A DNA stretch of 64,000 bases from Phoronis australis (lineage: Eukaryota; Animalia; Phoronida): positions 923,552 to 987,551 of the forward strand of contig NMRA01000045.1 of the NCBI GenBank assembly GCA_002633005.1, given 5' to 3'. This document shows positions 40,901 through 61,620 of this stretch, in pieces. The position numbers and the translations under genes are program-made. The first letter of the stretch is position 1, and every line of letters begins with the position of its first letter. The notes below the pieces were generated by a model. It did no database searches and was not told the DNA's origin. It saw nothing but the letters and a program-made list of their open reading frames with translations.

Positions 40901-43900
40901 GATTCCTTTCAATAACCACGTGACACGTGATACACACCACCATGTCCTATGGTGGGTACGGTAACCGCTACGGTGGCTCTAGCCCCATCTACGGCAGTAG
41001 TTCTAGCAACCCTTACAGCAGCAGCTCTGGCACCCCCTACGGCAGTAGCTCAGGGGCCCCCTACGGCAGCACCAGTGGTTACTCCAGTCTGGCCAGTCCT
41101 TCCTACAGCTCGTCCAACCTGGCCTCGAGTCCCTCTTACCTGAGCAGCCCCTCGTACACCTATGGGGGTTCTGCCTTCTCTCCTGGCCCCTATAGCATGC
41201 CACCGGCCAGCCCTAGCTACCACTCGCGCTCTGGCTCCACCAGCAGTCTCTCCAGCATTGGAAGTGCCTCAAGTCTGGCTAGTGTAAGTACTGTACTCTT
41301 TAGACCTCTCTTGAACAATTGGAAAGCAAGGGTAGACTCTCCTTATCTTTTCAAGAAGTTAATATGTGTGCTGTTTTGTATCTATGGCAGGTCAAGTTAG
41401 ACTCTCCTTCATTATATTTGTAACATTGGGCATTCTTTATTTGTATCTGGAGTCCTTGTTGTCGTGGAAAACCACAAATGTTTTGTGGCTAAGTTTTGTG
41501 AGGTGGGTTGGGGTGTTGTGCTGTGGTAACAGTGGATGAAGGCTGATTATTTTGACATTAAGTTAATTAAGATGGCTCATCCAGATAATTTCATTAAGCT
41601 GAAACGTCAAGGTATGCTCATATCAAATATAGGAGAAAAGTTCCATGGTGTATGAGGGTTGGATTGGAAAACAACTGTTTTTTCATGCTATGGTAAAGTC
41701 TCGCCAATTTCGGACAAAAATGATTTCCAAAATCATTTTTTTTCCAAATGCTTCCAGCATTGTTTTCAATACTCACGATTTCTAAGAATCTTTGTTTGAT
41801 GATACGTCATTTATTTGGTGCTACTCATCTCTTAGTGAATATATGGAAAAATGAAATTTCACCCGTTCGTCATATTGCATCTTAAATTGGTAAGATTTTA
41901 CCGTATCTTTTCTCAGATCTACTATCCATGCACGTAAGAGTGGCACAAATTTCCCAGCAAGATTCCTGCATTTCAATTCTGCATTCAATTCTATTGAGCT
42001 AACGCAGTGTCTGACTGGCTACAGTCTGTTTCGAACAATCGTGTTTGGTTATGCGTTTATGCGCCATTTTTGAACCTGCAGTTTTGGGGTGGGCCTTACC
42101 CTTGAAATGTGTTACGTCAGTGGCCCTATGATAGTAAGAAATGTTATGAGACCCATGACAGTAAAAGGCTCAATTCAATTTTCACTTGTTAGCCAGCTAA
42201 ACGGAGTAAAATATAGCATTTATAAGTTGTGTTAGCTTTAGTAAAAATTCTCCAGTTATCACTGTGAAAATTTAAACGTTATGTTATTCAAGGTTGAAAC
42301 TTGCACCAAACTTTAGAAAAAATCAATATTGGCCTTCTCAAATTCAAGAAATACATTAAATGGCAAACGATCATTCACTTCTGTTTTACATACACACTAA
42401 GGGGATGGTTGTAAATGTTGCGCTGGTGGCTACTGTATATTTCACCGATTTTATGAACTGGCAAGTCTAGCTTCAGACTCTGTTGATGCAAAAGGAAGTG
42501 TCCGATATTTGAGAAATATGAGCGCCAAAATCGCCTATGTCCCAACGCTCAGAATCAAGAAAATTCAGTTTCGACTTGAATTTGGGTGTCTCAAAATTAA
42601 AAGACTTTCGCGAACTGGAAAATTTTTACGTCACAATAAGTCAATATTTAGTTGAAGATTTCATCCCTCTCATTGGTCTCTTTTTGTTCTGATACACATG
42701 ACATAAATTGTTTGTCATTTAGAGACAAACAAAACACTGCGAACTTAACCATGCCTCCCCCAGGTCCCAAAGGGCTAGACAATAAAGTGATAACAGCTGA
42801 AGGATAGACTAGAGTTATATCTAGATTTGACTGTCATATGGAATTGAAGGGGAGGGTTTTTGTAGTGTATAACCAGTTAACATATTCATAGGCTGTGTGG
42901 GCAGAGTCATTGCAAAGTTCCCCAGCTTAAATGTCTGCCAGTCAATTATGTTGTGTGTGTTTAGCTGTTTAAGTGAGGTAGGTCTTTTCTCCTTCCTACA
43001 TTAAAACTACTTACTGCACTCCATGGTCCACTAATGGTCAAGGGCTCAGTTCAAGTGCCATTTCACACTTGGAGGGGTTTTTAGAATACTGCCGCCTCAT
43101 AGCTGTTAAGGAAAATCTATAATGCTCTGGCAGGTTCTGTGAAAAATCGAGACATATAGGTCTTGGAATGCTTCAACGTATGAATATGAAAGTATAAGTT
43201 AGAGTGAAAGGGTAGTTGTGACTGTGACTGGCTCGAGGTAAAATCTCTAGAATGAGAGTTGTGACTTGCGGGTATTGAATAGTTAACCAGCTGATAGATG
43301 ATACTGAAATAATTCCAAAGTTTTGGAGTTGAAATATCGTTCGTAAGAAGCCTGCCTAAAGTGAGAGCTCACTATTGGACGAGAGTGTGCGCTCGTTTCA
43401 GAAAACAAATAAAAGGCCTCTATAATTAATATAAAGTAAGCTTACACTATTAAACTTAATTATTTATTTCTGTACCAAATTTACTGTAGTTTCCTCCAAC
43501 AATCTTGTCTTGCATACTTTGTGTACTTCCAAGGTACACCGCTTAGAATCGTTGTTGTTCTAGCCTTGAAACTTAGAGGGTCACATTGGGCGACATCTTG
43601 TATTCCGAAATGAACCACCTATCTTGAAGAATGATAGCACTTGCATACTAAGAGTTATTCATGAAGCCAGTGCTCAGGGTACTCGCAAACATCCACCTTA
43701 TTGAACATACTTATTGTATGAATAGTTGTTATCATGTGAATTATGTCGTAAGCTGAAGCTGTAGTATTTCTACCTGTTGTGTTTAAAATAGCCCTTATTT
43801 CAAAAATTTCTGTGACACAAGTTTGCACTTAATTAGGAACCCAATTCATTGGTCATGGTAAATTCCTGAATTCTGTCTCACCCCCCTAGTTGTAAGTGGA

Positions 43901-46900
43901 CCTAATTTGACACAATAGTCATCAAGTGTTACATGACTATTATTGATTCAGTGATGGTAATACACATTACATTACAAGGTGTGTTCATTGTGTTCAATAT
44001 TGCACTGTAGGTCCCCAGTGCAGACTCAGCACGCATGGTTCACTGCAGGTTGATTCTTGGCAGCTGTTTATGAGTTCAGCTCTTGATAACCAACCTGGTT
44101 GCAGTGTGACGTGAGCTCTTTGATATTAATAATTACATATCGAGCGGAAGCCAGCATACATACAATAGTCGGGCATTATAAACCACTATTGGAAAAACGT
44201 CACAGTGCTTGGAGAGGCAGAAATGTGATAGGATTCGACTGGTTGGTTACTAAAGTATTTCAGTTGGAATTTGTGTAAAAACTGTCGTATACTATGTGGA
44301 AAAGGGATTTACCATACATGACTACGGACTCTGGGTCCACTAAGCTCAAGGTAATGATAACTGTTGATTGTAACCAAGTGCTGTAATCCACTGTGAAATC
44401 TGGCCTCTTTAGCATGTGGTGGAAAGAGTGGATTGCGAGCAAATCATTTTAACTGAGACTGCCTTGGTTGTACTGCTGTGTAGTTTTTTCTTACTTTGTT
44501 TAGTATCACTGATCTTGATTATTGGTCTCGGCTTCTGCCTCAGTTCTTAGTATGATTAGACTACTTAAGAACTGTCTATAAATAGTGTGTTTGCAAACGG
44601 CTCTGCAGGTTTGCGATGTGGGAGACATTATTTTTTTTCGATGGTGTAACCGTTGTGTACGCTATGGTGTGTTGTATGAAGTGTCACTTCAAAACTTGGG
44701 CTGCGTTCTAAAAGGCTTTAGTCCTGCGAGATAGGCAGCTGAGATCATAGGGCATCAGGCTAGTGAAAAGTAGTGTCGTGATCCAACTGATGACTTTACC
44801 TAGCATACACTAACAAAGTGGCAGTAACTGAAAGTGAATGAATGGCAGGATAATGACAAAGTGTTTAATTTTGGGAATAAGTGCCTCGTCAGTTACTATT
44901 TCTGTTGCATAAGCCTTTTAGTCACTTCTTGCTCTCGTCATATCGGTTTTTCTACTTTGAGTTTCGAATCCAGTGAAACGTAGTCGTATGGCATGGGTGA
45001 AATAATTTTTATTATAAAATTTTTACTTTTAGTTTTTGTGGATGGATAGCCTATCTTTCTTTGGTGTCACGTACAGTGTGCCAAACATTAACAGTGGCCC
45101 CGCTATTGTGCGGAAATTGTTATTTTACCCTAGCTCACAATGTAGAAGAGCTTGTCTTGACTCTGTCTCCCCCATTGCTTCAGTGCTTGTACAGGAAGGT
45201 ACCTGGTCAGTACAATAGTCTATTGTGAAGGTCTGAATTCACTTGGATATATTTTGTTGTGGTTAGGCATCTCTTATGTAATTACTACCTTTTCTTGGTA
45301 AAGGACAGAAACCAGTCATTCACAGATTCCAGCACTGCTCAGGATTAGAAAACGCCCCAACTGAACTCATCTTTAATGTGGAAGTTGCAAAACTCTTCTA
45401 TTGTTGACTCAGTTTTCTAAATTTTGTGCACATTGTAGTAGAGTCATACAAGCAAAGAATGATTCACTGCACATATACAGGATTGGCCTCATTTTTAACA
45501 GTAAAACCTGCTGAGCGAGATAATGGCCTGGTACACTAATAGATACTACCAAAGTAATTAACATATTAGGCAGCACTAGATGGCAGATGTGTTGCATTGT
45601 AGGTTAATGCCGAACAAGTGAAGTGGCACCGTTATGTTTTGGGTTGGGTCTGCTGTAATATGGAAGGATTCTAGTGAAGAACATTCACTTTTCTTCTAAC
45701 CTGTATTATTCTGGTTGACCATTTTACAAGTATTTAAAAATTCACATACGCTAAACAGTGTACCTTATCTCGTGAGATTTTTTCCTAAGAATTGTTAAGT
45801 TCATCTTAAGTGCCGTCCACGCACAGACTCACCGTAGAATAAATTACTCCTGGAAGGAGTTGTCAATAGGTTTAGAGGCTGTGTGAAATTGTGAAGTTTA
45901 AGCTATTCCAACTTGCCTTACTTGTGACAACTTACTTGTGACAACTTCACATTATCGAGGTGAGTAACTTGTTCTAGGGTTACGTGCACCACTTGTAATC
46001 ACTTTGTGGCTGCAAAAGTGAAGTAGGACGGAAGTAATTATCAGGTGCGGTTACATACAGACGGGTTTTCTTTTACGCGCCCTACTTGCATTAGGCGTTC
46101 ATTGCTACGCACAGAGCAACAACTTCCTCCTTATAGTTATCGGATATGTGTGTGTGTGTGTGTGTGTGTGTGGACGCTCCACTTACGGTAAAAGTGGGAT
46201 AAGTTGCAATAGTTCAAGTTGTTTTAGGGTAGGCTGTACTGTAAGTGTGTTGGATCTCACACCAACTCATTATCAACGGCAGTAGTAGTATCATGGAGAT
46301 AGTGTTATCTAACCATTGTTTTTGTTAGGGAACATAACTCTCAACACAGTCCCTATACAGGTCAGCTGATAAACTTAGTTTTCAGTGCCTTATCCAACCC
46401 TTGCTGTTCATAGTAGGTGTAAATCATTTTCAGTAACTATGAAGCTAAGAGATGAAATCTTAAAAAGGCATTTTGAGACATGTTTATTACTAAAATGGGC
46501 ATTACTCAGTTTAGAAATGGCTTTGAGCTTTGTACGAACTGACTGTTCCCTATTTCTTTAGACCAAGCTCATGAAATTACACATTGCGACAGAAATTCTA
46601 AGCCGTGTCTTCTGAGGGGCAGTTGACTTGATAATTAGTGCTTCTAATTCAGACTGAGGTATCATTCCACCTGAAAGTTCCGTTATGTCAGCTCCTCTGA
46701 CCCAACCTTCAATCTCGATATTCAAACCTTCATTGCTTAAACCATTCTTTTCTGCGCAGTCACTTCTTTGTCAGCAACATATGGGGCGCTTCATGAGCGA
46801 AACTTATTGCGTTGATACTTTCCAGACATTTTTCGTACTTCTTATGTTAAAAGACATGAGCAAAGATTTCACACTTTCATAGCTAAAAACCAGAAGTCGT

Positions 46901-49900
46901 TTCTCAGAATGTGTTGGAGAGTGCAGTCTGAGACTAACCGGTCTCAGAAATATTGAAGTGGAATTTCTGACCTAAGCCCAAAGCACTTTAATGTGATGTC
47001 AAAAGTCAGTTTCATTTAGAATACTTTTTCATCATTTCATTAGTTATTCTTTATCAACCTGTAGTCTGGGACTATGTGTACTAATGCAGTTAATCTCAGT
47101 TGCTATCTGTATGAATAATGTTGATTTCTCATTATGGAACTCCGTTGCAAGTCTTTCTTATTAAACCTAGATGGCATAGTTGGATTTTGTATTATTGATT
47201 GAATATGTTTGTCGTATATCACGACCTCTAGCCGTAGCCCATCGGAATAGAGATACGGCAAATGTTCTTCAGTTCAGCACACGAGACGGTGATCATGTGC
47301 TGTTTAATTTTGTCAAATTTCTTCAAAATAATGAAAAAAATTGATTTCATCATCAGCAGGATCAATAGCAGTGATCACAAAACAACAATTTTGTTACGAG
47401 AGTTTGAGCATTTTAACAAATGTATCCATTAAATGTTATAAAAATGGAAAATTCCTATTTGACAAATATTTTTGTGCAAAGTTCAGGAGAGATTATCATA
47501 ACCTTTCCCCACTTAAGGTTTTTTTTTCAACTCTGACTTTGAGAGGAGTTGTGATGGCTGTTCTAGTCTAGGAGTTGCGCTTTCCCGCTGATCGGAGCTC
47601 TCTGTAGCACGGGAGTTTTGGTGCTGGTGGGAAAGAGGCATACGATTGCTGCGAATGGAGATATTGGTTGAAACTGCTTTTTCAACAGATCTTGATCACT
47701 GCTGTATGTCAGGCAGTCACTTGCAGGGATCCTGCATTTTAAGAACCAGTTCAATGCCTGTTTTTCAGGGGTGAATACTGGTTCTCAAAATGCAGGAAGC
47801 CTGTAAATGACTATTACTGCATCTCATGAACCACTTGGCATAATTTGTTTGAATTTACAAACATTGATTTTTTTGCTCTGCCTGAAGGGATTGATTATTC
47901 TGTACTGGCTTTTATGTTGTTAATGATAAGTGTATCCAACTTGAAATGCGAGTCGTTCTATAATTGAAATGCAAAGTAAGTAATCTGTGCCTGAGAACTA
48001 GTCTGCTTGTTATGTATCCCAGTCGCTTTAGGGGGGAGGTGTTTTATTCCTCCATGACATATGTACTAAGACTGGTGTTGCAAGTTGCCAGCAGTGTGGT
48101 GTAAAGGTTCTTCAATGCCACTGTAGGTGAGAGGGTAGTCAGTGCATATGTCCGTCATTGACATGCTGGCAACATTACCCAGTGGGTAATTTGTTTGCTG
48201 TGGGAAAATATCCACTGATAATTCATTCTAGAAAGCACTGGTTTTTCAATTCCTTGATTGGGAGAGGCCAATGAGTGCCGGTGTAATTAGGTAGAAAGTA
48301 GCACAATGAATATTCAATATATCATAGATGATGATAGCGTCACATAGATTTAAGAGTCGTTTTAGTACGGTAGGGAAAGCTAGTGCCTTCCTCCTCTATG
48401 AATGAAATGGTCCTACTGCATTAAGTGAGCGTGAATGGTTTTGCCTCGAAAGACTTTGTTTTGTAATTACAAATTGCCTTGGCAGTTTGAGTTATCGCCG
48501 AGGCATTTAAATCAAAAAAGTAATTGTTCTAGTGGTGTGCATTAAATCAAACCCAAGTTACAGTACTTACAAGACAAAAGCAATAGAGACAAAATTTTTC
48601 TCACCTTAAAGGATAATTCTGTTAATAGTAAAAATGACTGGCAATAAATATTAATGTGGCAAAATTTTGATTACAGAGTGGATTAGCTACCTCATTAACT
48701 TAACTGTTAATCTCCCTTCATTATCTCGGTCATGAAAACTGTGAGGATGAATTCAGTTTCTGCCCAGTCGTCGTGATAAGGAACTCCGGGTTTTTTTGTC
48801 TCATTACTTTTGGCATGTATTGTATGGTTGCTTGCAAGTTAAATTTCTTAAAACTCGGGGTTGGTGGGTGTTCAGTTCTATGTGGGCACTAATCCAAACA
48901 AAAACTGTAGCTTATTCTCGTTTCAGATATTTTTGTATTTTCAGTGGTTTCTTAACTTACGTTTCTGTTTTTCTTTGCAGTCTTCGTCGCGTTACAGTGA
49001 TCGCTATGGTGCTGGTGAAAGATCATCGTATAGCGACCGCTACTCATCCACCCGTTCTTCGACACGTGACGCTGACCGGCCGAGCAGTTCCTACAGGTAT
49101 TCCCGCGCCTCTACAACGGCTGCTGCCACAGAGTCGGAGTCGCAAGATTTCAAAAAGGTACGCAGGCTGACAGAAGTGTCTTTATGTTTTACTAGTGCAG
49201 TTTCATAACATAGAAAAAGCTTTTGGACTTATGTAGTTGTTTTTAGCTGAAGAACAAATGGAACAATCAGCACTTGGGTATTCGTTATTATCGATATCGT
49301 GTTATTAACTTCAAATAATTTGTTGTTACTTACGGAAATCACCTGTCAGTGAGTGCTGATAACTCAAACAGTCCCTCACAGTGAAGTTAAGCAGGTCATG
49401 TTAACATTTGGCGGAACTATGAAGTTGACCATCATCACCAAGTGCTCACCTGTTTGTGTTCCCTTAGTGACTAAATCTGTTATTCGCCTTTGCTTGTCTC
49501 CTTATTTCCGCTGGTGACTTGTCCAGTAAAACCTCACCAATTTAGGACAAAATGTGTCGGGAGAAGTGAAATTTTATTTTTTTTTTGTTTTTCCATGAAA
49601 GTAAGAAACTCCGAATTTATGCATTTCCTTGTTCAAGTTTTGTACCATAGCTGTCATCAGACAAAATTCTGAAAATTTTTAGACATTCTCAACAATGTTC
49701 GGAAACTTTGAAAAATGAATAAGGTCGGTTTTGACAATTATTTTGGCAGAGTTTGGTGTTATTTAACCGCTGATGAGGTCAAATTTGATATGAGTGTTAG
49801 CAAAGTATTGGTTGTTTTCTTTTATTGATGTGACCTAACGCTAGAATTGTGTGAATATTCAAGTAAACACACAAACTCTAGTCTGTCTCTGTTTCCAGTT

Positions 49901-52900
49901 ATACGATGAACAAAAAGCCGAGAATGAACGTATAAAGAAAGAGTTAACCAAAGTCCAAAAAGAATACGCCGACTGTAAAACAGAACTAGAAAAAACCAAG
50001 TCAAGCCAAAGTCGATTAGGCAATTCAATGGATCAAAGAGTGAGTGTCATGCCTGCAAATCACCGGGTGGGGGGGTGTCTTTTGCATCTTCATAGACCAC
50101 AGCTTTGCAACTCAATTTCATGTGGAATTCACAGAAGCGGTGCCACTTCCTGGTTAGTGGGCAGACGACTTACCGTGACTAACACCAGGTGGCGCTTATG
50201 AATACTGACTTCACGGCCAATGGTGTTGGTGGTGTCTTGTGCGTACGATCACAGGTTTTGTTCACTGAGGATATACAGAGTTGTCAGTCCACATAGTATA
50301 GTTAACGGTTTAGTGAAAGTGACTTAAAGACTTAAGACAGAAATTTGGTGTTGGGAATCAATAATCAAAACTCACTTTAGCTTATCAACAAAGTATTTGA
50401 GAATATACCCATAACTGCTACTTACTGGGAAAAGTTGTACAAATTCTTTGCAGTCAGTGGTACACTAATAATTACATGACAACGGTTATTTGGTAATTGT
50501 GAAGTGAGAGCATTAGACCAAATTTCAGTCTTGGTCACTGTTCATGAAGCAGACCCCAGCATACATTAGCGACAGTACGAGGTGTTGTATTTGCTTTGTA
50601 TTATCATCTGCTTAATACTCTTGATATCTTCATTTTAGTCATGAAATACAACTACATTGTTGTATCCATTAGACTAAGAGCCACTTAAAATTGAGAATCT
50701 GGGAGTTGTAGTCATGCCGAGTACAACTGAATCAGTGGTGTTGTTGAACTAGAGCTAGGCGTTGAGGCAATGTGAACATTAGTATGAACGGATAAAGTGT
50801 TGTTAGTCAATATGTTTGTAAGGCGGTGCTGTTGTGGCATTTTTGTTGGCAAGATTCTCTGATGGCGGGACAATGTTTTCTGTATGTCTGTGCCATGTCT
50901 AAATGCCATTAGTTTTGCCAGGGTTGTCTAACCCTTCCAAGATTAGACTATTTTGTGTCAATCACAGGTGATATCACAGTTGAGTTCATTTTGATGAAAG
51001 AAATAGCTTGCTTTCATGGCAAATAAAATTTGAAATCGGTTAATCAGGGTATTTCTAGATGTCCATGTTTGACCTAAAGTAAAAAGTAAATTCCCGTTGA
51101 TTTAATGGCAGAAAGTTTGCTTAATATTGAGCTTATTTAATGACAGGTAAATGAGAAAGTAGTGAGTGTTGTTAATCTAATACATTTGTTACTTCAGGAG
51201 AAGAGGACATTAGAACGGAAGATATCTGAAATGGAGGAAGAGCTCAAGGTACGCAATACTGTCAATCTAATGTCACACTTTTTTCATCGCAACCAAACGT
51301 TTTATGACTGATGGTGTTTCGGCTGTTGTTAGGAACATCTTAACGGTCAAGAAAGTTTCGTCTGAAATCTTGTTTTTGTCTGTGAAATTGGTGTTACTTT
51401 GTGTCTCCTCGGCCGCATTACACAGCGACCCTTGGCACTGTTTACCCATAATGCCACAATATCCATCAAACCAGTTTGAAATCTTGTTTTTGTGCCATTG
51501 TAGCTTCTCATATAATGTGTTGGTGTCCTGCATTTTACAAGTTTCACTTTATTGCATTAACTATATACGACATTCCACTGTCAGGTTTTACTGCTGAGCT
51601 GTAGGCCACAACTCTGATGGCAGAAAGTTTGATAAACAATTCGTGAATGCATGTTTTCCAACGTGATGCCCAGAATCACTCCGACATTTTCAAAGTGAGA
51701 GCGCTTTCTCACCTCTGGACAAAAGAGAGTCCAATGGGTAACGGTCGTATTATGGCTTACTATGACTGGGTTTGACTAGCCTACGTTACTCTTGGTAAAC
51801 ACATTGAAACAATTCCTTTGCTTTTTCTCAAAGTTACTCTTGCCAATGGATTAAATGTTCGATAAAATCTCACTCCTGTCTCCAGTATAGTGGGAATGTT
51901 TTATTTTGTTGTGAAATGAATCAGAAAGTACCATAGTGTATAATGTAATATAAAAGCCAGTAAGCAAAAGTTAAAAATTTGAGGTCAGAATTCACTTCAG
52001 AGTTTTAACATGTTGTTTTTGACATAGCTTAACATTTGTCCCCACTTTTGAAAAGGCGTGAGCATCATCAATACATATATGTATGTTTGAAAAACATTTC
52101 TAGATGTATTGCTTTAAGGGCGTGAATTGGACTGTTAGCTGATCTGTTGCTTGTCTTGTGCAGGATATATAGTTCTTAAGACTTAGTGGCACTGCCATTA
52201 ATACAGATTCTGTTACTGGCAAATTTTCTTAAAGACCGACACAGGGCCAGTTGAGTCGTGTCAGAAGCATAGATCTCAAAACTGCAATAAATCAAAATTT
52301 AGGTGTCAAATCGAGGCCTGCAAGCAATTGGTGAACTCCACTGCATGCCACGGTTAACAGAAGTTCCCGGGTTTGAGTCCCATCGGGGCAGAATTTTTTC
52401 AGACTTATGTTCATTAGGTCACGTGATGTGGCCAACAGGTGGCATGCAGACCATACATGAAATTTTTGTGATCTATATTTCTACGCCGATTCAAGATTTA
52501 CATATTTATGTACACTCAGAAGTTTATGGGCTGAATGCCTTCTAGATTTCTGTGTTCAACTAGTGGTCCCGATCACTCAGTGGCCTTGATTGTTCTCACG
52601 GTTAGCAGGTCTCGGGTTCAAGTCCCGGTTGGGGGAGAAATCTTTTCAGGTCACGTGATGTGGCCAACAGGTGGCGTGCAGACCAGACAAAAAGGTTCGT
52701 GATGGACCTGTTTTATTGGCAGTGGAACTGATATATTACATATGCTTGCTACATGAGCAGATTTTTAATGGTCATGATGGCCCTAAGGATTATCAATGTC
52801 AGTTGACAGTTTCCATGATATAAATTTTTACTAAAGCTTATTGAAGTAATTGTCTAAATGCTGCACGTGCCTCTGTGATATTGCAAGTAGCTAGGAGCTC

Positions 52901-55900
52901 TCCCCGCAATGTACGTGTGAAGATGCTGTCTGAATCTTGGTCAAATTTATTTTGAAAGTTGTTATGCATGCCGTCGCAACTGCACAGCCCTTCATCCCAA
53001 CTGTGTTGATTTTCATGAAGACTTTGGCTTATGTTGCATCTTGCTGGAGCTTCCCTTGTGTTCTTTCAGCCAATGGAATCGTTAAAACTGGACAACGCTA
53101 AGTTAGTAGAAGAGAACCACACCCTTTTATGCGAAATAGACAAATTGTCAAAACCATAGGTAAAACTGAAATCGAAATCCAGGTACTCACCAAGCAAGCA
53201 TAGGGCATGCTCTGACCTCTGACCTACTGGTTCATTGGTGGTTTATCATTTGGCATTGGCGTATGCAGTAGGGAATACCTGCAGACCTACAGTCAAAGGG
53301 ACATTCAGTGCTTACGGAGTGCTGTACATTTATAGCTTGATGGCATTGCAGTCACTATAAACTAAAGCAGCTTGCCTTCAGATGTGTCAATATTTGAGAA
53401 AAGCGACCAATTAGGAAATAAGCTCTTAGTAGTCTTTTTATGTTGTTTTTCAATGAAAAAAAAATAAAAGCAATACAGAGAATATCAACTTAATGTTAAA
53501 CTCTTGTTTGATTTCCATCTCTTTAGCTCCTGGGTTGTCATAGTTGGATACAAATTGGGCTTTGCATGGCTGATAATATGCAGGCAGGCGGCTTTTGGCA
53601 AATAATTGAGCATGTACACACACTAGATGTGTCGTTGTGGAACTGTGCCATGTTGTTTCCATCACCCGGTTTTCTTGTTTGCCAAAACCTGAAGGTAGAC
53701 AGTTTTCCTTTCTCGCACTATGCAGGCATTCTCATCATGTTTGCTTCTCGTGCGTACAGTCCTTTTTTCACCAGCTGTAGTTTAGTCATGAGCTGCAGTT
53801 CTTTTCACTCTCTTTCACTTTCTGTCAGACAGGAAGCATGAGCAAGCATGCTTGTTGCAGGGTATCAAACCTGTCTCTGACTACATACTTCAACTCAGTG
53901 GTGTTTATGGGAAACCGTAGTGCGTGATAAGAAATAGAAATCGTAAGGATGGAATGCCCCAGCTTTCCATAAGGGATATGGATGATCTCCCTTGAACCAC
54001 TCGTTGTGCAATTTCCGAGTTTATTCATTATTCAAGAGCTTACTGAACATCCTTTTTGTGCTCCCACATATACATGTATGTGAGTGTACACTGCCGTCAT
54101 CTTTCTCTGGATATCCGAGCATCGGGCGTCCACTGCCGTTATCTCCTAAACCCCTCGCACAATCTTAATGAGATTTTGGCACATGAGTTCCTATGAAGTT
54201 TATTATTACAGATGGCAACATGTTTCAGACTAATCCGACTACTGCTATGCCCTCTAGTGGCAGATAGGTTTCTATTAAGAAGATGACGATGCCATTGTTT
54301 TTTCGGAGGGCTTCAACATATTTATGTTGTCTTGTGGCCATTTTTGTTATTTTTGAGTCCCATTTTCTGGCATCCGGCTCTTTATACACCAAAGCGGTCA
54401 AAAGATCACCTTGAAAATTTGCAGATATGTTCCTGATGAGAAGACATATGGCTGACGTTGATTTTCGGATGGACTTGACTTCTACGTCACCCCCTAGTGG
54501 TGATATTGTGCATCCGCACCCATATCTTCTTAACTCTTTGAAGGAGCTTTGTGAAATTTGGCAGATGCGTTCTTATGGAGCTGGCGACAGGTGATGACGA
54601 GTTTCGGACTGATCCATATACCGCTGTGCCTCCTAGTGGCCAGTTTTGTTTTGTGTTTGCCTGTGTATCTTCGGAATTCATCTATGGATTTTCATGAAAT
54701 TTGGCAAATAGGTTTCTACTAATGAGATGAAGATTTCTTTCCATTTTCACATGGATTCAACTTATTTGCACTACCTAATGGCAAATCGCTCAAAGGATTA
54801 TGAAAATTGGCAGACATGTTCCATGGTTTACAATTTTTGGACAGGTTCAAATGCTATGACGCCCCCTAATGTCAATTTTTTGCATTTTGTGGCTGTATCT
54901 CCTTAATCCTTTGTAGGATCTTTTTCAAATTTTGGCAAGTGTTTTGATTTGAATGTGACCATGGCTTTTCAATGACAACCACTGTGCCCCTTAGCAGAAT
55001 TTTAGTTTTTACTTATGCCTTTGTATCTTCAGAGTTCCTTCATGAAATTTGGTGATAGGTTTAAGTTTTGGAGACGATAGCACCATTCCATTTTGGACAG
55101 ATTTGACATGTTCTGCACCATCTAGTGGCCATTTTTATTATTTTTAGTCTTGATTTTGTCGTCTGTCTCTGTATTTGCGGAAGTGCTTTGAGGATCATCA
55201 TGAAAATTGACAATTTTTTTGCCCTGACTGATAATTTTCAGACTAGTCCAACTACTTAGGTGTTCGCAACTGGCATTTCTTGCATCTGTGACTGTTTCCC
55301 CTGAGCTCCGTGCAAGATCTTTGTTAAATTTGGCAAATGTATTCCCATTAACTTGACAACAAATGAACAGATACAATTACGGCTCTGCCTCCTAGTGGAA
55401 TGTGATTTTACTTTAGTTGCCACTGTGTCTTTTAACTTTCTCGATGGATTTTTATAAAATATTGCAAATAATTTTCTATTAGGGAGACAACGATGCCTTC
55501 CAATTTTCAGACAGGTTTGTTATATCCTGCGCCTTATTTTTATGATAATTAACACAGTCCCCCTAGAAACTTGTTGTTTGCGGTGCAGTCGTGGGCACAT
55601 TTCAGTGCTTTGCATTGCGCTCGTTACTTCAGGTAGTTGGTATGTTTTATAAAGTTTCACCCGTGGCATCTCATTCATTTGTCTCAGTCTGTGATTGGTT
55701 ACTTGTTTAATGGTCTTAATGTTGCCCTTGTTCCAATGCTCTGTCTTAGCCTCCTGATTTTCGTGTGTAGTTGTGTTTCTTAAAGGAGGTGATTACGTTC
55801 CAGCACCTGTTCAGTGTCCAGTATTTCCCACTGTTACCTGTTGTCACTGCCAGTTGGTAGGGTGTATTCAGCCTCATCTTGATTCCGTGTGCATTTTCTC

Positions 55901-55994
55901 ATTGCAGCAAATGGAATTACTCAAACAGGATAACCAGAGGCTCAAGGAGGAGAACGGAGCATTAATACGTGTCATCAGCAAGTTGTCCAAGTGA
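774..55994 (+). CDS. PPP1R12A: Protein phosphatase 1 regulatory subunit 12 / myosin phosphatase targeting subunit (MYPT1-like, Mbs); multi-exon gene span, canonical exon 1 not in window
   Basis: Spliced translation gives ankyrin repeats (ACIDDNLDMVEFLIENGAD..WTPLH), RDEETETQRKLRARRARETRRSTQGVT, DFKKLY..ERKISEMEEELK and the terminal DNQRLKEENGALIRVISKLSK, all hallmark MYPT motifs. Exon phases are consistent throughout. The paralogue letter (A/B/C) is not meaningful for an invertebrate. Confidence 0.95.
3782..3912 (+). CDS. PPP1R12A: MYPT ankyrin exon (ACIDDNLDMVEFLIENGADIDVCDNEGWTPLHATASCGYCEIA)
   Basis: tttttgtag acceptor, ag|gtaagc donor, phase 0-2; ankyrin TPLH motif. Confidence 0.95.
4447..4565 (+). 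CDS. PPP1R12A: MYPT ankyrin exon (FLLEYGANAAAVNNDGDLAIDLATENDMEELLAEYMEKQ)
   Basis: ttgcag acceptor, c|gtgagt donor, phase 2-1. Confidence 0.95.
5884..6043 (+). CDS. PPP1R12A: MYPT exon (IDADSARNEEENRMLADANQWL..GATALHVAAAKGYLKVM)
   Basis: ctgcag acceptor, ca|gtaagt donor, phase 1-2; ankyrin TALHVAAAKG. Confidence 0.95.
9853..10011 (+). mobile_element. Truncated second copy of the 13472-13831 MITE
   Basis: acatacatattttagaacaatc..ttggaaaattttccaaaaatatg..ttttcggaaagtcgcggt aligns by eye with 13680-13831. Confidence 0.6.
10225..10369 (+). CDS. PPP1R12A: MYPT ankyrin exon (ILLMAGVDIEAKDTDGWTPLHAAAHWGEEEACKLLVENMCNMEARNYS)
   Basis: ttccag acceptor, agt|gtaagt donor, phase 2-0. Confidence 0.95.
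10325..10555 (+). repeat. Degenerate ~121-bp tandem duplication spanning an exon donor
   Basis: aggaatta(t/a)agt|gtaagtactggcacctattggtcaatg at donors 10370 and 10491; tgccacatggtgg also repeated. Confidence 0.85.
10887..10961 (+). CDS. PPP1R12A: MYPT exon (GQTCFDVADDDLLKLLEDLKIKQAS)
   Basis: tttcag acceptor, tcg|gtaagt donor, phase 0-0; matches the MYPT GQTxFDVAD motif. Confidence 0.93.
11587..11657 (+). CDS. PPP1R12A: MYPT exon (RREDSKKEIPHLDIIETKHPMKR)
   Basis: tttcag acceptor, ag|gtaagt donor, phase 0-2 bridges the flanking exons. Confidence 0.85.
11830..12397. mobile_element. Fold-back MITE with TTAA target duplication (Kolobok-like termini)
   Basis: TTAA|GGTTATCT...AGATAACC|TTAA; arms remain imperfectly complementary for about 250 bp (e.g. 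gaaaggagaaaaatcgaggattctaaaaatatgct / agcatatttttagaatcctcgatctttctcctttc). Confidence 0.85.
13472..13831. mobile_element. MITE, TA-flanked (Tc1/mariner-like)
   Basis: TACCGGGAATTTCGGAAAA...TTTTCGGAAATTCTCGGTA inverted termini; 3' part recurs at about 9853-10011. Confidence 0.7.
14028..14042 (+). CDS. Candidate 15-nt microexon (R-DSDK-R)
   Basis: pyrimidine tract plus gtag acceptor, ag|gtgaga donor, symmetric phase 2-2, no stop. Confidence 0.35.
14468..14512 (+). CDS. Candidate 45-nt cassette exon (SSYRELAGLNTAVNK)
   Basis: ttcctttctacctgttag acceptor, aa|gtaatt donor, symmetric phase 2-2, open frame. Confidence 0.5.
15159..15262 (+). mobile_element. Degenerate tRNA-derived SINE head
   Basis: gtggcc A-box-like start and GGTTCGAATC B-box at 15206-15215; no complete cloverleaf. 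Confidence 0.4.
16575..16768 (+). CDS. PPP1R12A: MYPT exon (TSITRMSMDQKQHINLGDVHEERQKME..SSSSEESSSDSET), acidic/Ser-rich region
   Basis: ttgtag acceptor, g|gtgagc donor, phase 2-1. Confidence 0.9.
17585..17666. repeat. Degenerate pentanucleotide (ATTGT/ATCAT) simple repeat
   Basis: direct reading. Confidence 0.7.
18416..18471 (+). CDS. PPP1R12A: MYPT exon (VSEKQNELNPQLLAKPVTQ); in-frame alternative acceptor 6 nt downstream (exon start 18422)
   Basis: ttcag acceptor, cag|gtgagt donor, phase 1-0 required between neighbours. Confidence 0.8.
18948..19349 (+). CDS. PPP1R12A: MYPT low-complexity E/K/P/S/T-rich exon (EKVQENDKKPEQ..VVPSTK); symmetric, possibly cassette
   Basis: gctag acceptor, aag|gttgta donor, 402 nt open frame, phase 0-0. 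Confidence 0.8.
19782..20021 (+). CDS. PPP1R12A: MYPT charged exon (VDETPSEPEK..RRRRRRQLKEEAE..EVADE)
   Basis: cccag acceptor, gag|gtaagt donor, 240 nt, phase 0-0. Confidence 0.85.
21654..21743 (+). CDS. PPP1R12A: MYPT exon (DPQEPAVSNEVPAKEPLHRTASLPARLSRQ); acceptor could instead give a start at 21663
   Basis: pyrimidine tract plus aag/cag acceptor, cag|gtaaga donor, phase 0-0; LxRTASLP basophilic-kinase/14-3-3-type motif. Confidence 0.75.
22741..22938 (+). CDS. PPP1R12A: MYPT exon (..SWRAGLRKAGSSSAV..VQKSASSPWL..), Ser445/Ser472-equivalent region
   Basis: gctag acceptor, gat|gtaagt donor, phase 0-0; resembles vertebrate WRLGLRKTGS and RSASSPRL. Confidence 0.9.
23794..23891 (+). CDS. PPP1R12A: MYPT exon (TQERSYRRQYLSSTSSVPENPPENPPEITTRN)
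   Basis: tttcag acceptor, ag|gtaagt donor, phase 0-2. Confidence 0.8.
25534..25713 (+). CDS. PPP1R12A: MYPT exon (NTYPYLSRVQTSSST..RRRQEREAEREKER..SFR)
   Basis: ttgtag acceptor, ag|gtgacg donor, phase 2-2. Confidence 0.85.
27273..27363 (+). CDS. PPP1R12A: MYPT exon with the inhibitory ROCK site (SFEPPKRDEETETQRKLRARRARETRRSTQ; Ser695/Thr696-equivalent)
   Basis: gttcag acceptor, cag|gtcagt donor, phase 2-0; hallmark motif. Confidence 0.95.
27892..28005 (+). repeat. 35-bp tandem repeat (3 units plus partial) copying the splice acceptor and first codons of the GVT exon
   Basis: GGTGTTACC begins at 27892, 27927, 27962 and 27997, each preceded by AG. Confidence 0.95.
27997..28173 (+). CDS. PPP1R12A: MYPT exon (GVTKEDVAAAEATLQL..RRRRDYSTKV); donor after 28170 or 28173
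   Basis: completes RRSTQ|GVT; ctacag acceptor; gta|gtaggt donor; phase 0-0. Confidence 0.88.
28987..29080 (+). CDS. PPP1R12A: MYPT exon (DDTANLSASTNSFRRSRDYAATTTTDLSSST)
   Basis: attcag acceptor, g|gtaaag donor, phase 0-1. Confidence 0.85.
31679..31876 (+). CDS. PPP1R12A: MYPT exon (GYIPRSQRLSAQ..poly-T..SYRQRQLAAEEDK..KKE)
   Basis: gctaac branch-like site, ttctag acceptor, g|gtgagt donor, phase 1-1. Confidence 0.88.
32957..33054 (+). CDS. PPP1R12A: Mutually exclusive exon A (DANNGLDPHERRLASIRERRRERRSSALAQNIN); Thr853-region variant RRSS
   Basis: ttgcag acceptor, aat|gtaagt donor, phase 1-0; resembles vertebrate SIRERRRPREKRRSTG. Confidence 0.85.
33195..33295 (+). CDS. PPP1R12A: Mutually exclusive exon B (DDLFSGRSSSGIRARRRRIERRPTGKVPSDISED); Thr853-region variant RRPT
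   Basis: ACTAAC branch point at 33165-33170, gtag acceptor, gat|gtaagt donor, phase 1-0. Confidence 0.85.
34103..34598. mobile_element. Non-autonomous DNA transposon with CAGGG termini (hAT-like)
   Basis: 13-bp perfect TIR CAGGGCTTGGAAT...ATTCCAAGCCCTG; subterminal TTTCCGC repeats; TCTAAT direct repeat on both flanks. Confidence 0.85.
35345..35410 (+). CDS. PPP1R12A: MYPT exon (AKEDSTEETKKEPAKTEPEDTS)
   Basis: ccgcag acceptor, tcg|gtaagt donor, phase 0-0. Confidence 0.85.
35781..35875 (+). repeat. 31-bp minisatellite x3
   Basis: tgattcttatgtactgtcattatctgtagtt repeated three times. Confidence 0.9.
36726..37484 (+). repeat. 379-bp direct duplication separated by a single N (probable assembly artefact)
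   Basis: 36726-37104 vs 37106-37484, only two substitutions seen; N at 37105. Confidence 0.9.
37986..38237 (+). CDS. Possible 252-nt cassette exon (IGTDLEELAHCLSMLKSDQ..KSISIQTQDE..HRLD)
   Basis: ccttgctcag acceptor, gac|gtaggt donor, phase 0-0, open frame; no family similarity recognised. Confidence 0.3.
39879..39965 (+). promoter_or_regulatory. Candidate internal (muscle-type) promoter/enhancer: TATAAAT and MEF2 consensus CTATTTATAG
   Basis: TATAAAT at 39879-39885; GGCTATTTATAGCC with YTAW4TAR core at 39956-39965; E-boxes CATCTG/CACCTG just downstream; about 1 kb upstream of the internal ATG. Confidence 0.4.
40942..41283 (+). CDS. Candidate internal first coding exon (114 codons, Y/G/S/P low complexity) of a short M20/M21-like isoform
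   Basis: accaccATG context; in-frame TGA at 40921 with no AG between it and the ATG; GC-rich coding-like composition; agt|gtaagt phase-0 donor fits exon 48981. Confidence 0.8.
46147..46172. repeat. (TG)n microsatellite
   Basis: direct reading; another at about 22241-22259. Confidence 0.9.
47715..47812. repeat. Inverted repeat/hairpin, 36-bp arms
   Basis: agtcacttgcagggatcctgcattttaagaaccagt pairs with actggttctcaaaatgcaggaagcctgtaaatgact (5 mismatches). Confidence 0.8.
48981..49157 (+). CDS. PPP1R12A: MYPT exon (SSSRYSDRYGAGERSSYSDRY..SQDFKK)
   Basis: ctttgcag acceptor, aag|gtacgc donor, phase 0-0; DFKK motif. Confidence 0.93.
49899..50039 (+). CDS. PPP1R12A: MYPT coiled-coil exon (LYDEQKAENERIKKEL..SMDQR)
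   Basis: ttccag acceptor, aga|gtgagt donor, phase 0-0. Confidence 0.93.
51198..51248 (+). CDS. PPP1R12A: MYPT exon (EKRTLERKISEMEEELK)
   Basis: cttcag acceptor, aag|gtacgc donor; near-identical to vertebrate ERRALERRISEMEEELK. Confidence 0.95.
52349..52693 (+). mobile_element. Two adjacent tRNA-derived SINE-like fragments
   Basis: B-box-like GGTTCAAGTCC / GGTTTGAGTCC, each followed by a shared aggtcacgtgatgtggccaacaggtggc(a/g)tgcagacca. Confidence 0.55.
53070..53159 (+). CDS. Duplicated alternative leucine-zipper exon (PMESLKLDNAKLVEENHTLLCEIDKLSKP*)
   Basis: ttcccttgtgttctttcag acceptor, phase 0; 16/28 residues identical to the last exon; stop TAG immediately followed by GTAAAA (possible donor). 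Confidence 0.85.
   Translation, partial: PMESLKLDNAKLVEENHTLLCEIDKLSKP
54053..55625 (+). mobile_element. Helentron/HINE-like non-autonomous element with internal degenerate tandem array
   Basis: 5' ttttTGTGCTCCCAC and 3' subterminal GTGGGCACA inverted pair followed by a short hairpin; repeated gaaatttggcagat and ccctagtgg motifs inside. Confidence 0.6.
55908..55994 (+). CDS. PPP1R12A: MYPT canonical last coding exon, leucine zipper (QMELLKQDNQRLKEENGALIRVISKLSK*)
   Basis: ttgcag acceptor; hallmark PKG-interacting C-terminus. Confidence 0.97.
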   Translation, partial: QMELLKQDNQRLKEENGALIRVISKLSK

Positions 55995-58900
55995 ACCACC
56001 ACATGGACGTCGTCGATGAACCTTTGGTGCTAGCTAAAAATCACGGAGCTGAATATCGGCTCTTCCCGTCTTCCAGATCCCCCCTCTCGTCAATTGCCCC
56101 ATCCCCGTCATTTTCCGCTGAGTCTCTTTGAATTTTTGACCCTGTTAATATGGAAGCTATCTCTGTTTATGTTAATTCCTCTAAATGTCACAAAAACGTA
56201 AGTACAAAGGCCAAGTGTTTCATAATCTGCGTTGCTACATTCAGGTAAATCCTTGATCGATTGTTACTGTCATCCAGTCAGTGTGGTTTGCAGTTTTGCT
56301 CATCATTAGTAGACACTATTTCTCAGTCAGAGCAGCACCTTGGTTATTTACCTGTGCAAGAACATATAGATCTCAGTATTGTGAGCGTAACTTTTTGACA
56401 GGGACTCAATGAACAGTGACGCAACAAATGGGTCAGAACCCAATAAATGTTTACACAGGTATAGTTGTCACAGTAGCCGTCAGGGTGTGAACATGACGAT
56501 ACTGAGGCCGTCTTGGTTCAAATGGATACTTTGAATTTCACTAGGTTGTGTTAGTGAAACAGCAGTCCTTCCAGTACAAACGGATACATTCAGGTGTACT
56601 GTGGGACACTCGGGCCACAAATGCCCCTGTGCTGGTAAATGTATTTCAATTGTCATTCTATTCAAACTAGAATATGGGGACTTGTACTACATTAGCGCCA
56701 CCTGGTGAATATCAAATCTCCCTTAGTTCAATGTCATCCCCACCTCAGTCCTGCTTTTCCCAGAGATCCTGGATTTTCCACTGTAACGGAAAACGGAGAA
56801 TTCGTGAAATCTTGAGTTCTTTCACCAAATTAGAAGTTCTGAATAGAATTCTAATATTTAAGTAGGAGATACTTTTTGATTAATAATTATTAAAAATTAC
56901 AAATATCCATCAAGTTTCAAAATTCTAGCAGCAGATCAATCGAGTTGTGCATTTTCTCTGAAGGTGGCGCTCCTCTTTTCCCGGTTTAGAGAAGCAGTGA
57001 ACATAGCCTGAAGCATACTATTTTGTAAAATGGAGCTGCAGCATAATTCAGCTTATTTATCACTTTGAAATAATAACGTAAACATTCTCCTATTTGGTAC
57101 AGTCTCAAGAATTTGGAACACAAAAATTCACCTAGAAATTGATTTTATTTTGATTTTGGAGATTTGAATTTAGGCAATTTTGGCATTCATCATATTTGGA
57201 TGCTGTGTTTTGTATCAGTTGACTTGGCAAACTAGCGAAAATAGTGTCAACACAACATTTTCAGGTGTCCTGGTGTTGCATTAAGTCGAGGTGCATACAT
57301 AATGGGATGGGCAATATTGCTTATTTCTGAAATTGGTATAGCTCCAACTTTGGGCAAAGTAATTAATTTTCACTGCCTCAAACTGAAGATTTTTATGGTA
57401 AAATGGAATTCCTTTTTTGAAGAATGGAACTGTACATTTGCTATAACCGTTTTCTCCGTTTGAAAAATGGAAAATCAGGGTCTTTGCTTCTTGTCCAGCT
57501 CTTGTGCAATGAGTCAGCCATCTTCCTTTCCCCTTCCATCTCTTTATAAACCAGTAAGATCCACGTACATTCTCACATATCATGAGAGTTTGGAGAACTA
57601 AATGACCATTCCCGGCTTCCTCTAGTTCCCGGAGAATATGTTTGGCTTGTACTGCGGGGCTGCCCTCTGTGGGTGGCTCCCAATGTTTTACTTGTAATTG
57701 CGGTCTGGTTAACTAGGTATAGAGCATTGTATACTGGCCCAGTGCTGGGAACCAGTGATAAGTAAGGCAGTTGAGTGGTAGATTTGTAAGTTACGGAGTT
57801 GTGTTGACGTCACCCCGGTGGTGTTTACTCTGCCTTCTTGTAAATGCTTTGAGCCCCCAGTTGTCTGTCAGCATTGGAATCAAGAGTTTGATTCAATGTC
57901 AGAGTTCCGACTTTGTGTGGACATTTTGAATTTGTAATCGACGGGTTGTTTTAGTTTATGTCGACCTAATGTTACGCTGTACCAACTGAATTTTGGCCCA
58001 TAATTAGGAAGCTGACTTTTGTTCGACTAACCTGTGTTAAAACCTACGTGTAAAATTCGGTGAATCAGATGTTAGCTTAAAGGGATGCGGACCCTCAAGG
58101 AACCATCTCTTATTTGTAATTTTTCTGGCCTCTCCTGTGGCAGCGAGATTTTTTTGCCAGTCTCCATAGTCATTTAGTATAGTTTTGGATTCAGTATTTA
58201 ATTGACAATTATACAGTTTTTGACAGTTGGTGACCCACCAGTCACTCCATGGCTAGCTTGTCTAGCAGGCCAACGCCACTGCCATCCTAGCAGGCCACTG
58301 CCATTCTAGCAGCCTCCTTCCAACAGCTGACTCGCTCCTAGGGAATTATTGGGGGACGATGTGTGTTTTCATGGTAACAGTTCACTACAACTTATGTATT
58401 TATTACGCACCCAGTTAAGTAAGTGCGCGGCAGATTATGCTGTTGCAGCGAATTATGTTTGGTTGTTTTTCTTGTTTATTTTTGATACTCGTTTATTTTG
58501 GGTCGGGAAGACCCGGTATTGGTTGGCGTCGTTTAACTGCTCTCATCCTCATCACAGATACGTGTAGGTCATTGCGTCACTTTGCAGGAAGCCTGTTAGT
58601 GGAGGACCGGTGGTCATCTGGACCAGGGGTCATCTGGACCAGGGGTCATCGCTGCAGTCTAGATTAGATCTCATCGCTGTCATGTCATTTCTTCGTCATT
58701 CTCTTTTTTGTTGGTGCCGTGTAAATATTTCCATCTTGATTTTTAAATTGTAATATATGTGTACTGTTTTTATTGAGGGGCTTGTTTCTGTGGCTGAGAC
58801 CCTCCAGGTGTACGAGGGGGCTATTTTTACAGCTAGTAGCTAGGCAAAGTCACTTGTTAAACATTTGATATTTATATTTTATCCTTGTTATTGTTGCTAT

Positions 58901-61620
58901 TGCGCACCGTTTTCGCTTGTTGAATCTCGCGGGGACTGGCGACAGTAGTCTGTATAGGTGGAAAGCTTCTCCAGTCCCTGTGAGTCTCTGGTGTCCGTAG
59001 GTGTATCGCGTTTGGCAAGGTCTTCTCTGATTGCCCCGCCTACTGCTTAGATGTTCTGCATTTGTTGCCATGAGGGCAATGCCTTTGACTGACATGTTGG
59101 AGTCAAAGTTTGCAAAATTGGTCCACGCAGTAGCCGCGGATTGGGGTCGTGTCTTACAGATTCGAAATGACTTTCGGACATTTTGTTGTCGCCAGGCAGC
59201 AGTTGACCGGTTTGCACGTGCGCGCACACGCTTCATTCTGTCTGGAGCTCCTATCAGCGACATCTTAAGGATGTCGACGGGTGAAGGCCACTCAGAATGG
59301 GCGTGTCTCTTTGCCTGTCGGGGTGACATGTCGGACCCCGGCCGTGCCTACTGGACACCTGTATCGCCTGGTTCTGTTGTTATGTTCCATTCTGTACCCA
59401 CGCAGGCAGTCTGGCTGCCTGCTGACGGGTAGTGACGTCATCTCCCCGGGGACAAACCAGCAGTGCGTTGCATCAGCGCTTCGTCCCCGAGGGTGATGGA
59501 GCTGTACCTTTACATCTGAGGCTGTGCGATAGCTGCACCCCTTGGTGTAACTGTGCATGTTGGCTGTGGATACTACAGGCAGCAGCTCGCCTGGCGCCCG
59601 TCGTATCCCAGCGCCCACTGGAGGCCTCCGGGCCTTCAGTCCTGCCAGGCGCCTGGTTTTCTCCACCCGTACTCGACTTCACCGTAGTTGAGCAGGCGCC
59701 TGGTTGATCTACCTCAAACATGAGCGAGCCGTCCAGGTTTCTGCGGCAGGCTCGCCCTGGTGTATCATATTCGTATACAGTGAACTCTGGCGGCAGAGCC
59801 GCTGGTGTTCAAAGCTTGAACATCATTTGTGCCTCTCACCTCGGAGTCAAGAGGCAGAGTTGGATGGCGTCGAGTCCAGTCACATCACAGTCTGCTTTGA
59901 AGACTCGCCAGCTGCCAACTGGTATGAACGATAAGCACGACTCGACTCCTTAGAGTCCCATGCGGTGACTCGATCTGTGATGGTTCAAAGTGGTCTTCGT
60001 GTTCACAAGTGAATAACTGTCGAGACACAACACAATGATGCGCGATTTCTATCGGATCTTCCTACTACGAAAAATAACTGTTCTTGGGCTCTTTTTAGAA
60101 TTTTCTTCATAATTTGTTTAAAATTAAAATTCTTACCTCTCGGTTAAACGATTGGTTATTTCAAAACTATTGCCTTAATCAGCCGCATCTTTGAATGAGA
60201 AGTCACATCGTGATGCTGTGTTACCGATGTTATCACACGACTGAACCGTGAACATTTTCTTCCAACCCCCCCCCCCTGATCTGGTCATTCCACCTTCTCT
60301 CACGTCCCAGCAAGTGAATATTCTATGTTGGCAACCTGCACATGTGCTAGTGGTTTGTTCCTTTCTATAACGTCTGAGCTTTTGCTCACTGGTTGCTTGA
60401 CGTCATTGAACACACCGTGTGTGTTTGGCACATTGCTTTTTGAAGCATGACTATTTCCGTCGCGTCCTCCTTGCTGTGGTATATCTGATTATGAGTTGCT
60501 GACACAAGCTCGGTTCTTCCATTGTGCTTTGAGAGAGTTGGTGGAGTGATTAGGCATTGTCGTAATGAGCTGATGTAGAAGCACTAGTCACGTGCTTCCT
60601 TTTTCGTGAAGCTTCTCGCAGTGTGAGTCGTCACGCAGCCTCTTCGTGTGGCTGCGAGCCGACGTCACTTTGCAAATGGTGGTAACCTTTTCCGTTGGGA
60701 GTTCGAAGGCCCTATTTCAATCAGTACCTGTTTGAATTCCTCATGTTAAAGAAACAATGGGAAGTGTTGCCATCCATTGTGAATAGGTCCTTGCCGTTCA
60801 AGATTCGCGCATATGCATAAGGCACCCTGTCCGATGTCGCCGCCTCGCTGTTACTCACGGGATTAGTGCAGCATATGCGACGAGGTGACGTCTGACATGT
60901 CGTGGCTCTGGGTGACATGTTGGATCCAGAGTTTGCATATTAACGACATAACGACGAGAACTGGTTTACGTCACGGAGAATGTCTTAAACTGTTGTGGTT
61001 CTCATGTTAAATTAGCAACAGTGAGGACATATCTTGCACTCTTTAGTGCCTGTTAGCAGTTTTGCACTGCTTTGAAAATTAACATTTCGCACATGTAACG
61101 TGAAAAACTAAAACGTCCTTCGGGACAAGAAGTAAGGTAATAAACTAAAACAACACTCTCGAAGATGTGATTTCTCCGTCAAAGAGCGATTCCATCAAGT
61201 CCGTTATTTTCCCTGCACACACTAATGTTTGAAAACTCTTTGAGCGGAGTGTCACAAATTTTCGTTGAACATTCAGACATTGTCAGTGATTGACGTTATA
61301 TAAATGACATATGGTCTCAAAAGGAACATGTTGAGTCCACTTTTTGGACGAAATAATGTTGATCAGTATGTCGGTGAAAGTGCTGTTTGTGGTGGGAGTC
61401 GTGCTCCCACTGGACTGTTACCATGGAAACTTATTTATTTTATAAATGAAACGCATCGTTTAAGTGGCGAAGGGACATTGCTAGGTTGGTTGTGGCTTTG
61501 GTCTGCTTGTGCCCTGCCTTGTATAATAGGGTTCAATCGCATTAGCTTATTATATATTCAGTCGGTTGTTGCATGTAGATTAGCTATGACAAAGTAATAA
61601 AACATCAGTTCTGTATTAAA
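55995..61620 (+). other. Probable 3' UTR region with candidate poly(A) signals at 56442-56447 and 61596-61601
   Basis: follows the stop codon; AATAAA hexamers; no convincing coding exons; true end unknown. Confidence 0.35.

Follow-up and report, generated by a model that had tools for sequence, protein, structure and literature searches.

Does the last intron of a phoronid myosin phosphatase gene hold a second leucine-zipper exon that is intact and used, and is such an exon old or freshly duplicated? We addressed this question in a 64,000-nt stretch of the Phoronis australis genome, referred to here as the window, in which a sequence-only reading had pointed to a diverged zipper exon ahead of the canonical one. 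Through its zipper, MYPT connects myosin phosphatase with cGMP signalling; in the textbook switch, that zipper is deleted. In vertebrate MYPT1 (PPP1R12A), according to the available parts of three papers, the canonical zipper is the binding site for cGKI-alpha, and an exon of 31 or 13 nt, E24, shifts the frame and removes the zipper, which constitutes the LZ+/LZ- switch (PMC13755552, PMC9367544, PMC5087845).

The host gene is a MYPT (PPP1R12) gene. With oyster, snail, and annelid MYPT proteins as tblastn queries, exons were matched in order from position 3782 to 55985, and the exons for the ankyrin-repeat N terminus were collinear. MYPT residues 1-83 are encoded upstream of the window, presumably in part by the canonical first exon with the PP1-binding RVxF motif. 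Among stored proteins, those most similar to the gene came from molluscs, followed closely by insect and annelid ones. The canonical zipper exon alone reached 47.9 bits for the Pfam family PRKG1_interact (cut-off, 32.4). The 3' end of the gene has the following features:

49899..50039, + strand, coiled-coil exon in which the PRKG1_interact domain starts (RNA joints, Pfam)
51198..51248, + strand, 51-nt coiled-coil exon, constitutive, corresponding to vertebrate E25 and serving as upstream splice partner (RNA joints 50039>51198 and 51248>55908)
55908..55994, + strand, canonical zipper, the coding part of the last exon (PRKG1_interact, 47.9 bits; 34, 14, and 11 junction reads)
55995..58200, + strand, 3' UTR (reads at a depth of 10-33 in all three runs, at least as far as the examined stretch extends)

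Positions 53070-53159 are a real, intact, phase-0 second leucine-zipper exon, and the canonical zipper exon lies 2,838 nt downstream of it. The features in and around this alternative exon are given below, with a slash marking the exon end:

52965..52970, + strand, TGCATG (position not conserved in other loci)
53050..53069, + strand, acceptor of the alternative exon, a pyrimidine tract and CAG (from the sequence)
53070..53159, + strand, alternative leucine-zipper exon, 29 codons and TAG, phase 0 (PRKG1_interact, 18.4 bits, E 0.0035)
53157..53165, + strand, stop codon doubling as the exon end of the donor, TAG/GTAAAA (same design in loci L001, L002, L009, and L046)
53463..53468, + strand, AATAAA within an A-run, at chance level, a candidate poly(A) signal only

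The alternative and canonical exons are identical at 16 of 28 amino acids and 49 of 84 nucleotides, and 9 of the 16 common residues are written with a different codon. Despite the 12 residues that differ, all seven a/d positions of the heptad core are kept (hypergeometric, 0.0097). The net charge is +2 for the canonical zipper and -2 for the alternative one, and the PRKG1_interact score drops from 47.9 to 18.4 bits. The alternative exon is one codon longer, and the extra codon preserves both the frame and the donor. Pyrimidines make up 16 of the 18 nt before its acceptor AG. GTAAAA directly follows its stop; in the whole window, 3 of 3,485 stop triplets show the arrangement TAG/GTAA. When all six frames of the window were scanned, the canonical peptide gave scores of 133 (self), 66 (alternative exon), and at most 27 (all else); no further zipper copy was found at 44001-60000 besides the two known ones.

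These measurements agree with the sequence-only reading as to the peptide itself, the distance of about 2.8 kb, the strong phase-0 acceptor, the retained core at 16/28 identity, the charge shift from about +2 to about -2, and the GTAAAA behind the stop. That reading had also called on the AATAAA at 53463 and the TGCATG at 52965, an RBFOX-type motif. Both hexamers are present, but we rejected them as supporting signals because they occur at chance frequency on the + strand of the window (32 and 29 times, respectively, or about 1 per 2 kb each). Of 12 genomic loci with a second zipper, 5 have TGCATG within 300 nt of that exon, at no common position.

Three raw RNA runs (18-19% of each was read) and one contig set were aligned to positions 48600-58200. 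In these samples, the alternative exon is mainly skipped: the skipping joint 51248>55908 was found in 34, 14, and 11 reads of the three runs (59 in total), the upstream joint 50039>51198 in 43, 16, and 13, and the X1 contigs contained the skipping form only. None of the 15 joints listed leads into or out of the alternative exon (e.g., 51248>53070 or 53159>55908); the table, crowded by repeats, comprises 36 further joints. The two bins that include the exon had mean depths of 2.3/1.7/0 and 3.2/0.9/1.6 across the three runs, a range (0 to 3.2) near that of four neighbouring repeat-free intron bins (0 to 3.0), and run X4 had zero depth over the first 24 bases of the exon. With the entire depth of the second bin counted as exonic, inclusion would have a ceiling of about one-third (X2) or about 15% (X3) of the depth of the 51-nt exon.

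Sense-strand reads were found throughout the last intron. Their depth reached 3 in repeat-free bins of 51249-55907 versus at most 0.2 in 50526-51167, and the last intron may be slowly spliced or retained. Two regions of interspersed repeats, 52340-52700 and 54200-55600, draw many reads from elsewhere; they contain two 42-nt copies that are 95% identical, as well as a degenerate array of tandem repeats.

Second zippers were found in other animals as well. A protein search with the canonical exon matched 4,463 proteins. In 10 of the 120 matches listed, another zipper-like stretch precedes the canonical zipper; five of these are vertebrate models, three are from insects, and one each is from an oyster and a nematode. 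Second-zipper C-termini were found in 8 of 81 further cluster members, all of them RefSeq A-type isoforms from two oysters (e.g., Crassostrea angulata XP_052711094.1 and C. virginica XP_022287228.1) and a firefly (Photinus pyralis XP_031347478.1). A metagenome scan confirmed 221 stretches, and 80 loci were kept; 14 of these contained a second zipper (12 genomic and 2 spliced), while many of the others were too short upstream or represented skipped transcripts. Among the 12 genomic loci, the second zipper ended in TAG/GTAA in four (L001, L002, L009, and L046) and in another stop plus GT in two, and six were without GT behind the stop. The two spliced contigs, L028 and L029, which are identical over these exons, run from the upstream exon through a stop-bearing second zipper to the canonical exon. 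The proposal that the window's exon could be spliced to the last exon is thus realized, in exactly this form, in another animal.

Judged from these gene models and contigs, a second zipper in the same slot is widespread in protostomes and present in vertebrate gene models. The description of the window's exon as an independent solution is not supported by this comparison, since a second zipper at the same position and with the same stop-plus-donor end is widespread, although the trees described below would allow a fresh duplicate too. The second-zipper exon can also be lost, because it was present in 3 and absent in 7 of the 10 genomic loci in which both flanking exons were found by pattern. 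Those seven loci (L023, L042, L043, L048, L053, L059, and L069) have an intron of 0.3 to 1.1 kb without a second zipper between the flanking exons; their similar tails suggest that the absences may represent loss in one lineage. In five other loci (L006, L008, L020, L024, and L035), the second zipper is prolonged by an Ala/Ser-rich tail of 40 to 65 residues with a basic RRF-like motif at its end.

The vertebrate frameshifting exon had been said to lie at this position, and here the slot needs correction. The supplement to one paper, in its available part, gives the junctions E24b-E25 and E25-E26 (PMC9367544); since E24 joins E25 and E25 joins the last exon, E26, E24 is one intron upstream of the slot of the window's exon. 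Both are optional exons near the 3' end that would decide whether the canonical zipper is made. Unlike E24, the window's exon is 90 nt long, stays in frame, has its own stop, follows the E25 counterpart, and supplies another zipper. The MYPT1 coding variants named in the available part of the same paper are E6, E9+, E13, E14, E22, and E24, with none between E25 and E26 (PMC9367544). Among the vertebrate models that we recovered, MYPT1-type models from Apodemus (mouse), Saguinus (tamarin), Diceros (rhinoceros), and Anolis (anole) have a second zipper before the canonical one. These gene models suggest a conserved second-zipper exon in the last intron of vertebrate PPP1R12A. In vertebrates, the A-type exon is about six residues longer at its N-terminal end and retains the signature ENRALTRV, unlike the window's exon. 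In the C-termini of the vertebrate MYPT1-type models P0055, P0007, P0009, P0024, and P0196, the second zipper stands directly behind the E25 counterpart.

MYPT2 exchanges two zipper ends through an optional exon, the M20 and M21 variants differing thereby. Apodemus model P0006, which we take to be MYPT2, has an A-type zipper ahead of the canonical one. The vertebrate exon may already be described in Dippold and Fisher 2014, Shichi 2010, or Arimura 2001. Heart-specific M20/M21 splice variants of MYPT2 (PPP1R12B) are mentioned in one of the papers cited above (PMC13755552).

The window's exon agrees with the second-zipper cassette in architecture. It lies, in phase 0, in the intron that separates the 51-nt exon from the last one, and its stop is followed directly by a GTAA donor (TAG/GTAAAA), as in 4 of the 12 genomic loci. 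As in the invertebrate A-type, the alternative zipper of 28 residues comes right after the same coiled-coil exon; the A-type loci share the TAG/GTAA end (four genomic loci) and, in L028 and L029, occur as a spliced cassette. Its residues set it apart. All 15 distinct second zippers carry Arg17, Ala18, Arg21, and Val22 without exception and have Lys or Arg at position 13, whereas the window's zipper has Val13, His17, Thr18, Cys21, and Glu22. It differs from the ENRALTRV signature, which the A-type keeps, at positions 17, 18, 20, 21, and 22; its charge is -2 against +3 to +5 in the 15 others, and it is one codon longer. Invariance among the 52 canonical zippers was excluded as evidence because those rows had been selected on the same residues. 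The exon is therefore best described as a positional counterpart, and likely an orthologue, of the second-zipper cassette that is not a member by sequence. What distinguishes this exon is the divergence: the exon is acidic and has lost the signature, though the heptad core is kept.

Direct searches recovered no relative. With the alternative exon as the query, neither of two candidates was accepted as a relative; a repetitive 509-amino-acid protein, the sole match among 1.84 billion representatives, was judged to be a chance match. The exon had no match in the PDB, and in the Atlas it matched only unnamed short clusters, with recognition below threshold. Neither of two candidates was accepted with the 47-residue coiled-coil exon as the query. 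The Par-4 zipper in the PDB, a weak match to the canonical exon (E 0.31), was set aside.

The reading that we favour, at slightly better than even confidence, is that the last MYPT intron contains an intact second zipper exon that is likely orthologous to the ancient one and likely included in a minority of messages, and that its product would be an acidic zipper, predicted still to pair but to be without the surface for the usual partners. We weighed three other explanations against it.

The first of these is that the ancient second zipper has lost its role in this lineage and is drifting toward loss, with little or no inclusion. The replacement of residues that all 15 other second zippers share, the lack of an inclusion joint among the 15 joints listed, and the absence of a second zipper from 7 of 10 loci (with similar tails, perhaps one lineage) are all in keeping with such decay. 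To set against this, we simulated neutral substitution (20,000 runs, up to the observed number of replacements; substitutions only, no indels). The core, open frame, AG, stop, and GT survived jointly in a fraction of 0.0003 of runs started from L028 and 0.0016 of runs started from the canonical exon, these being the two starting sequences having the strict core. With a looser core and splice sites ignored, survival was 0.002 to 0.017 over five starts. The core, the frame, and both splice signals have thus outlasted 12 to 16 replacements at a neutral probability of at most 0.0016, and the only length change is one whole codon that retained TAG/GT. These frequencies show that selection acted along most of the branch, though it need not be acting today, and they agree with the sequence-only reading of an intact alternative C-terminal zipper. 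We consider a fading exon unlikely.

A second possibility, which we regard as slightly less likely again, is a fresh duplicate, as the sequence-only reading had proposed: the canonical exon was copied within this lineage, or was carried into the old slot by gene conversion, and the copy took the place of the ancient exon before diverging. Similarity leans this way. The window's exon is identical to its own canonical copy at 16 of 28 residues and to second zippers at 7 to 15 of 28, and its mean BLOSUM score is 63 to canonical zippers and 49 to second zippers; all 15 second zippers score closer to their own group than to the canonical one. In a free tree, the exon falls outside the second-zipper clade (support, 96) and among the canonical zippers, on a long branch, although 28 residues have no resolving power. 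AU tests rejected neither placement, nor any other among 8 protein (P values of 0.19 to 0.74) and 6 codon (P values of 0.13 to 0.79) placements, the 28 residues and 84 bases lacking power for this. A fresh duplicate would require both that the old exon disappeared and that a donor arose immediately after the stop (3 of 3,485 stop triplets). Further, the codon for His17 is one base away from the second zippers' Arg and at least two from Gly. We favour orthology because of the position, the stop-plus-donor end, and the lack of another copy in the intron; from position and the TAG/GTAA end, the alternative exon is likely orthologous to an ancient optional exon.

Least likely of the three is a live exon whose chief use is as an alternative last exon, with its end close to the AATAAA at 53463: three X2 reads do cover 53378, downstream of the donor, and 6 of 12 genomic loci are without GT directly behind the stop, but that AATAAA is part of an A-run and such hexamers are no commoner than chance, sense reads occur all along the last intron, and the donor design is common to four loci.

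If the favoured reading of a retained, minority-included exon is right, inclusion would join the 51-nt exon to the alternative exon and the latter to the last exon, and the canonical zipper would become 3' UTR, a splicing pattern seen in other animals only. Escape from nonsense-mediated decay is governed by the 50-nt rule; with the stop directly at the last junction, the message is predicted to escape. By standard coiled-coil rules, the core is predicted still to pair as a coiled coil. On its surface, Lys13>Val would remove a g-e salt bridge, Val22>Glu would disrupt a hydrophobic patch beside the core, and Arg21>Cys together with the charge reversal would leave an acidic face. Due to these four changes, canonical binding would be lost. 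The alternative isoform could then serve as an adjustable control, detaching myosin phosphatase from the partner of its zipper (in vertebrates, PKG) or passing it to another. Uncoupling from the partner of the canonical zipper is likely under this scheme, and a new partner is possible.

The gene models and loci, candidate exons in vertebrate MYPT1 among them, suggest that besides the textbook switch there is an older one in which the zipper is exchanged. Against that background, the window's copy is a natural experiment in which the core was kept and residues common to 15 of 15 second zippers were changed. We also entertain, as less likely than not, a broader claim: that the two-zipper MYPT switch predates the protostome/deuterostome split and persists in the last intron of vertebrate MYPT1, and that here it was retuned to an acidic, tissue-expressed form with a different partner. 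No duplicated invertebrate MYPT zipper exon was described in the paper titles and abstract beginnings searched, which does not establish its absence from print. Our assessment is that the old zipper swap is annotated and little studied and that the acidic divergence in this lineage is new, its expression and partner being putative.

Two other stretches of the same gene resemble first exons. At 774-1937 (+ strand), inside the first MYPT intron within the window, is a frame of 388 codons that starts with MGCxCS, presumably a motif of the myristoylation/palmitoylation type, and contains GILK and KKRVSF, which we take to be PP1 docking motifs of the SILK and RVxF types. It matched no Pfam family, and stored proteins gave only a match at E 0.26. 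Its phase-0 end at CAG/GTAGTG fits the exon at 3782, whose acceptor is likewise in phase 0, and the frame is a candidate alternative first exon of a membrane-anchored MYPT. The second stretch, at 40942-41284 (+ strand), is a Ser/Gly/Tyr-rich frame that runs from an ATG in good context to a GTAAGT donor. Similar peptides occur in oyster proteins P0011 and P0050 (E 1e-8, low complexity) and in the spliced contig L029, and this frame is a candidate internal first exon for a small subunit like M20/M21.
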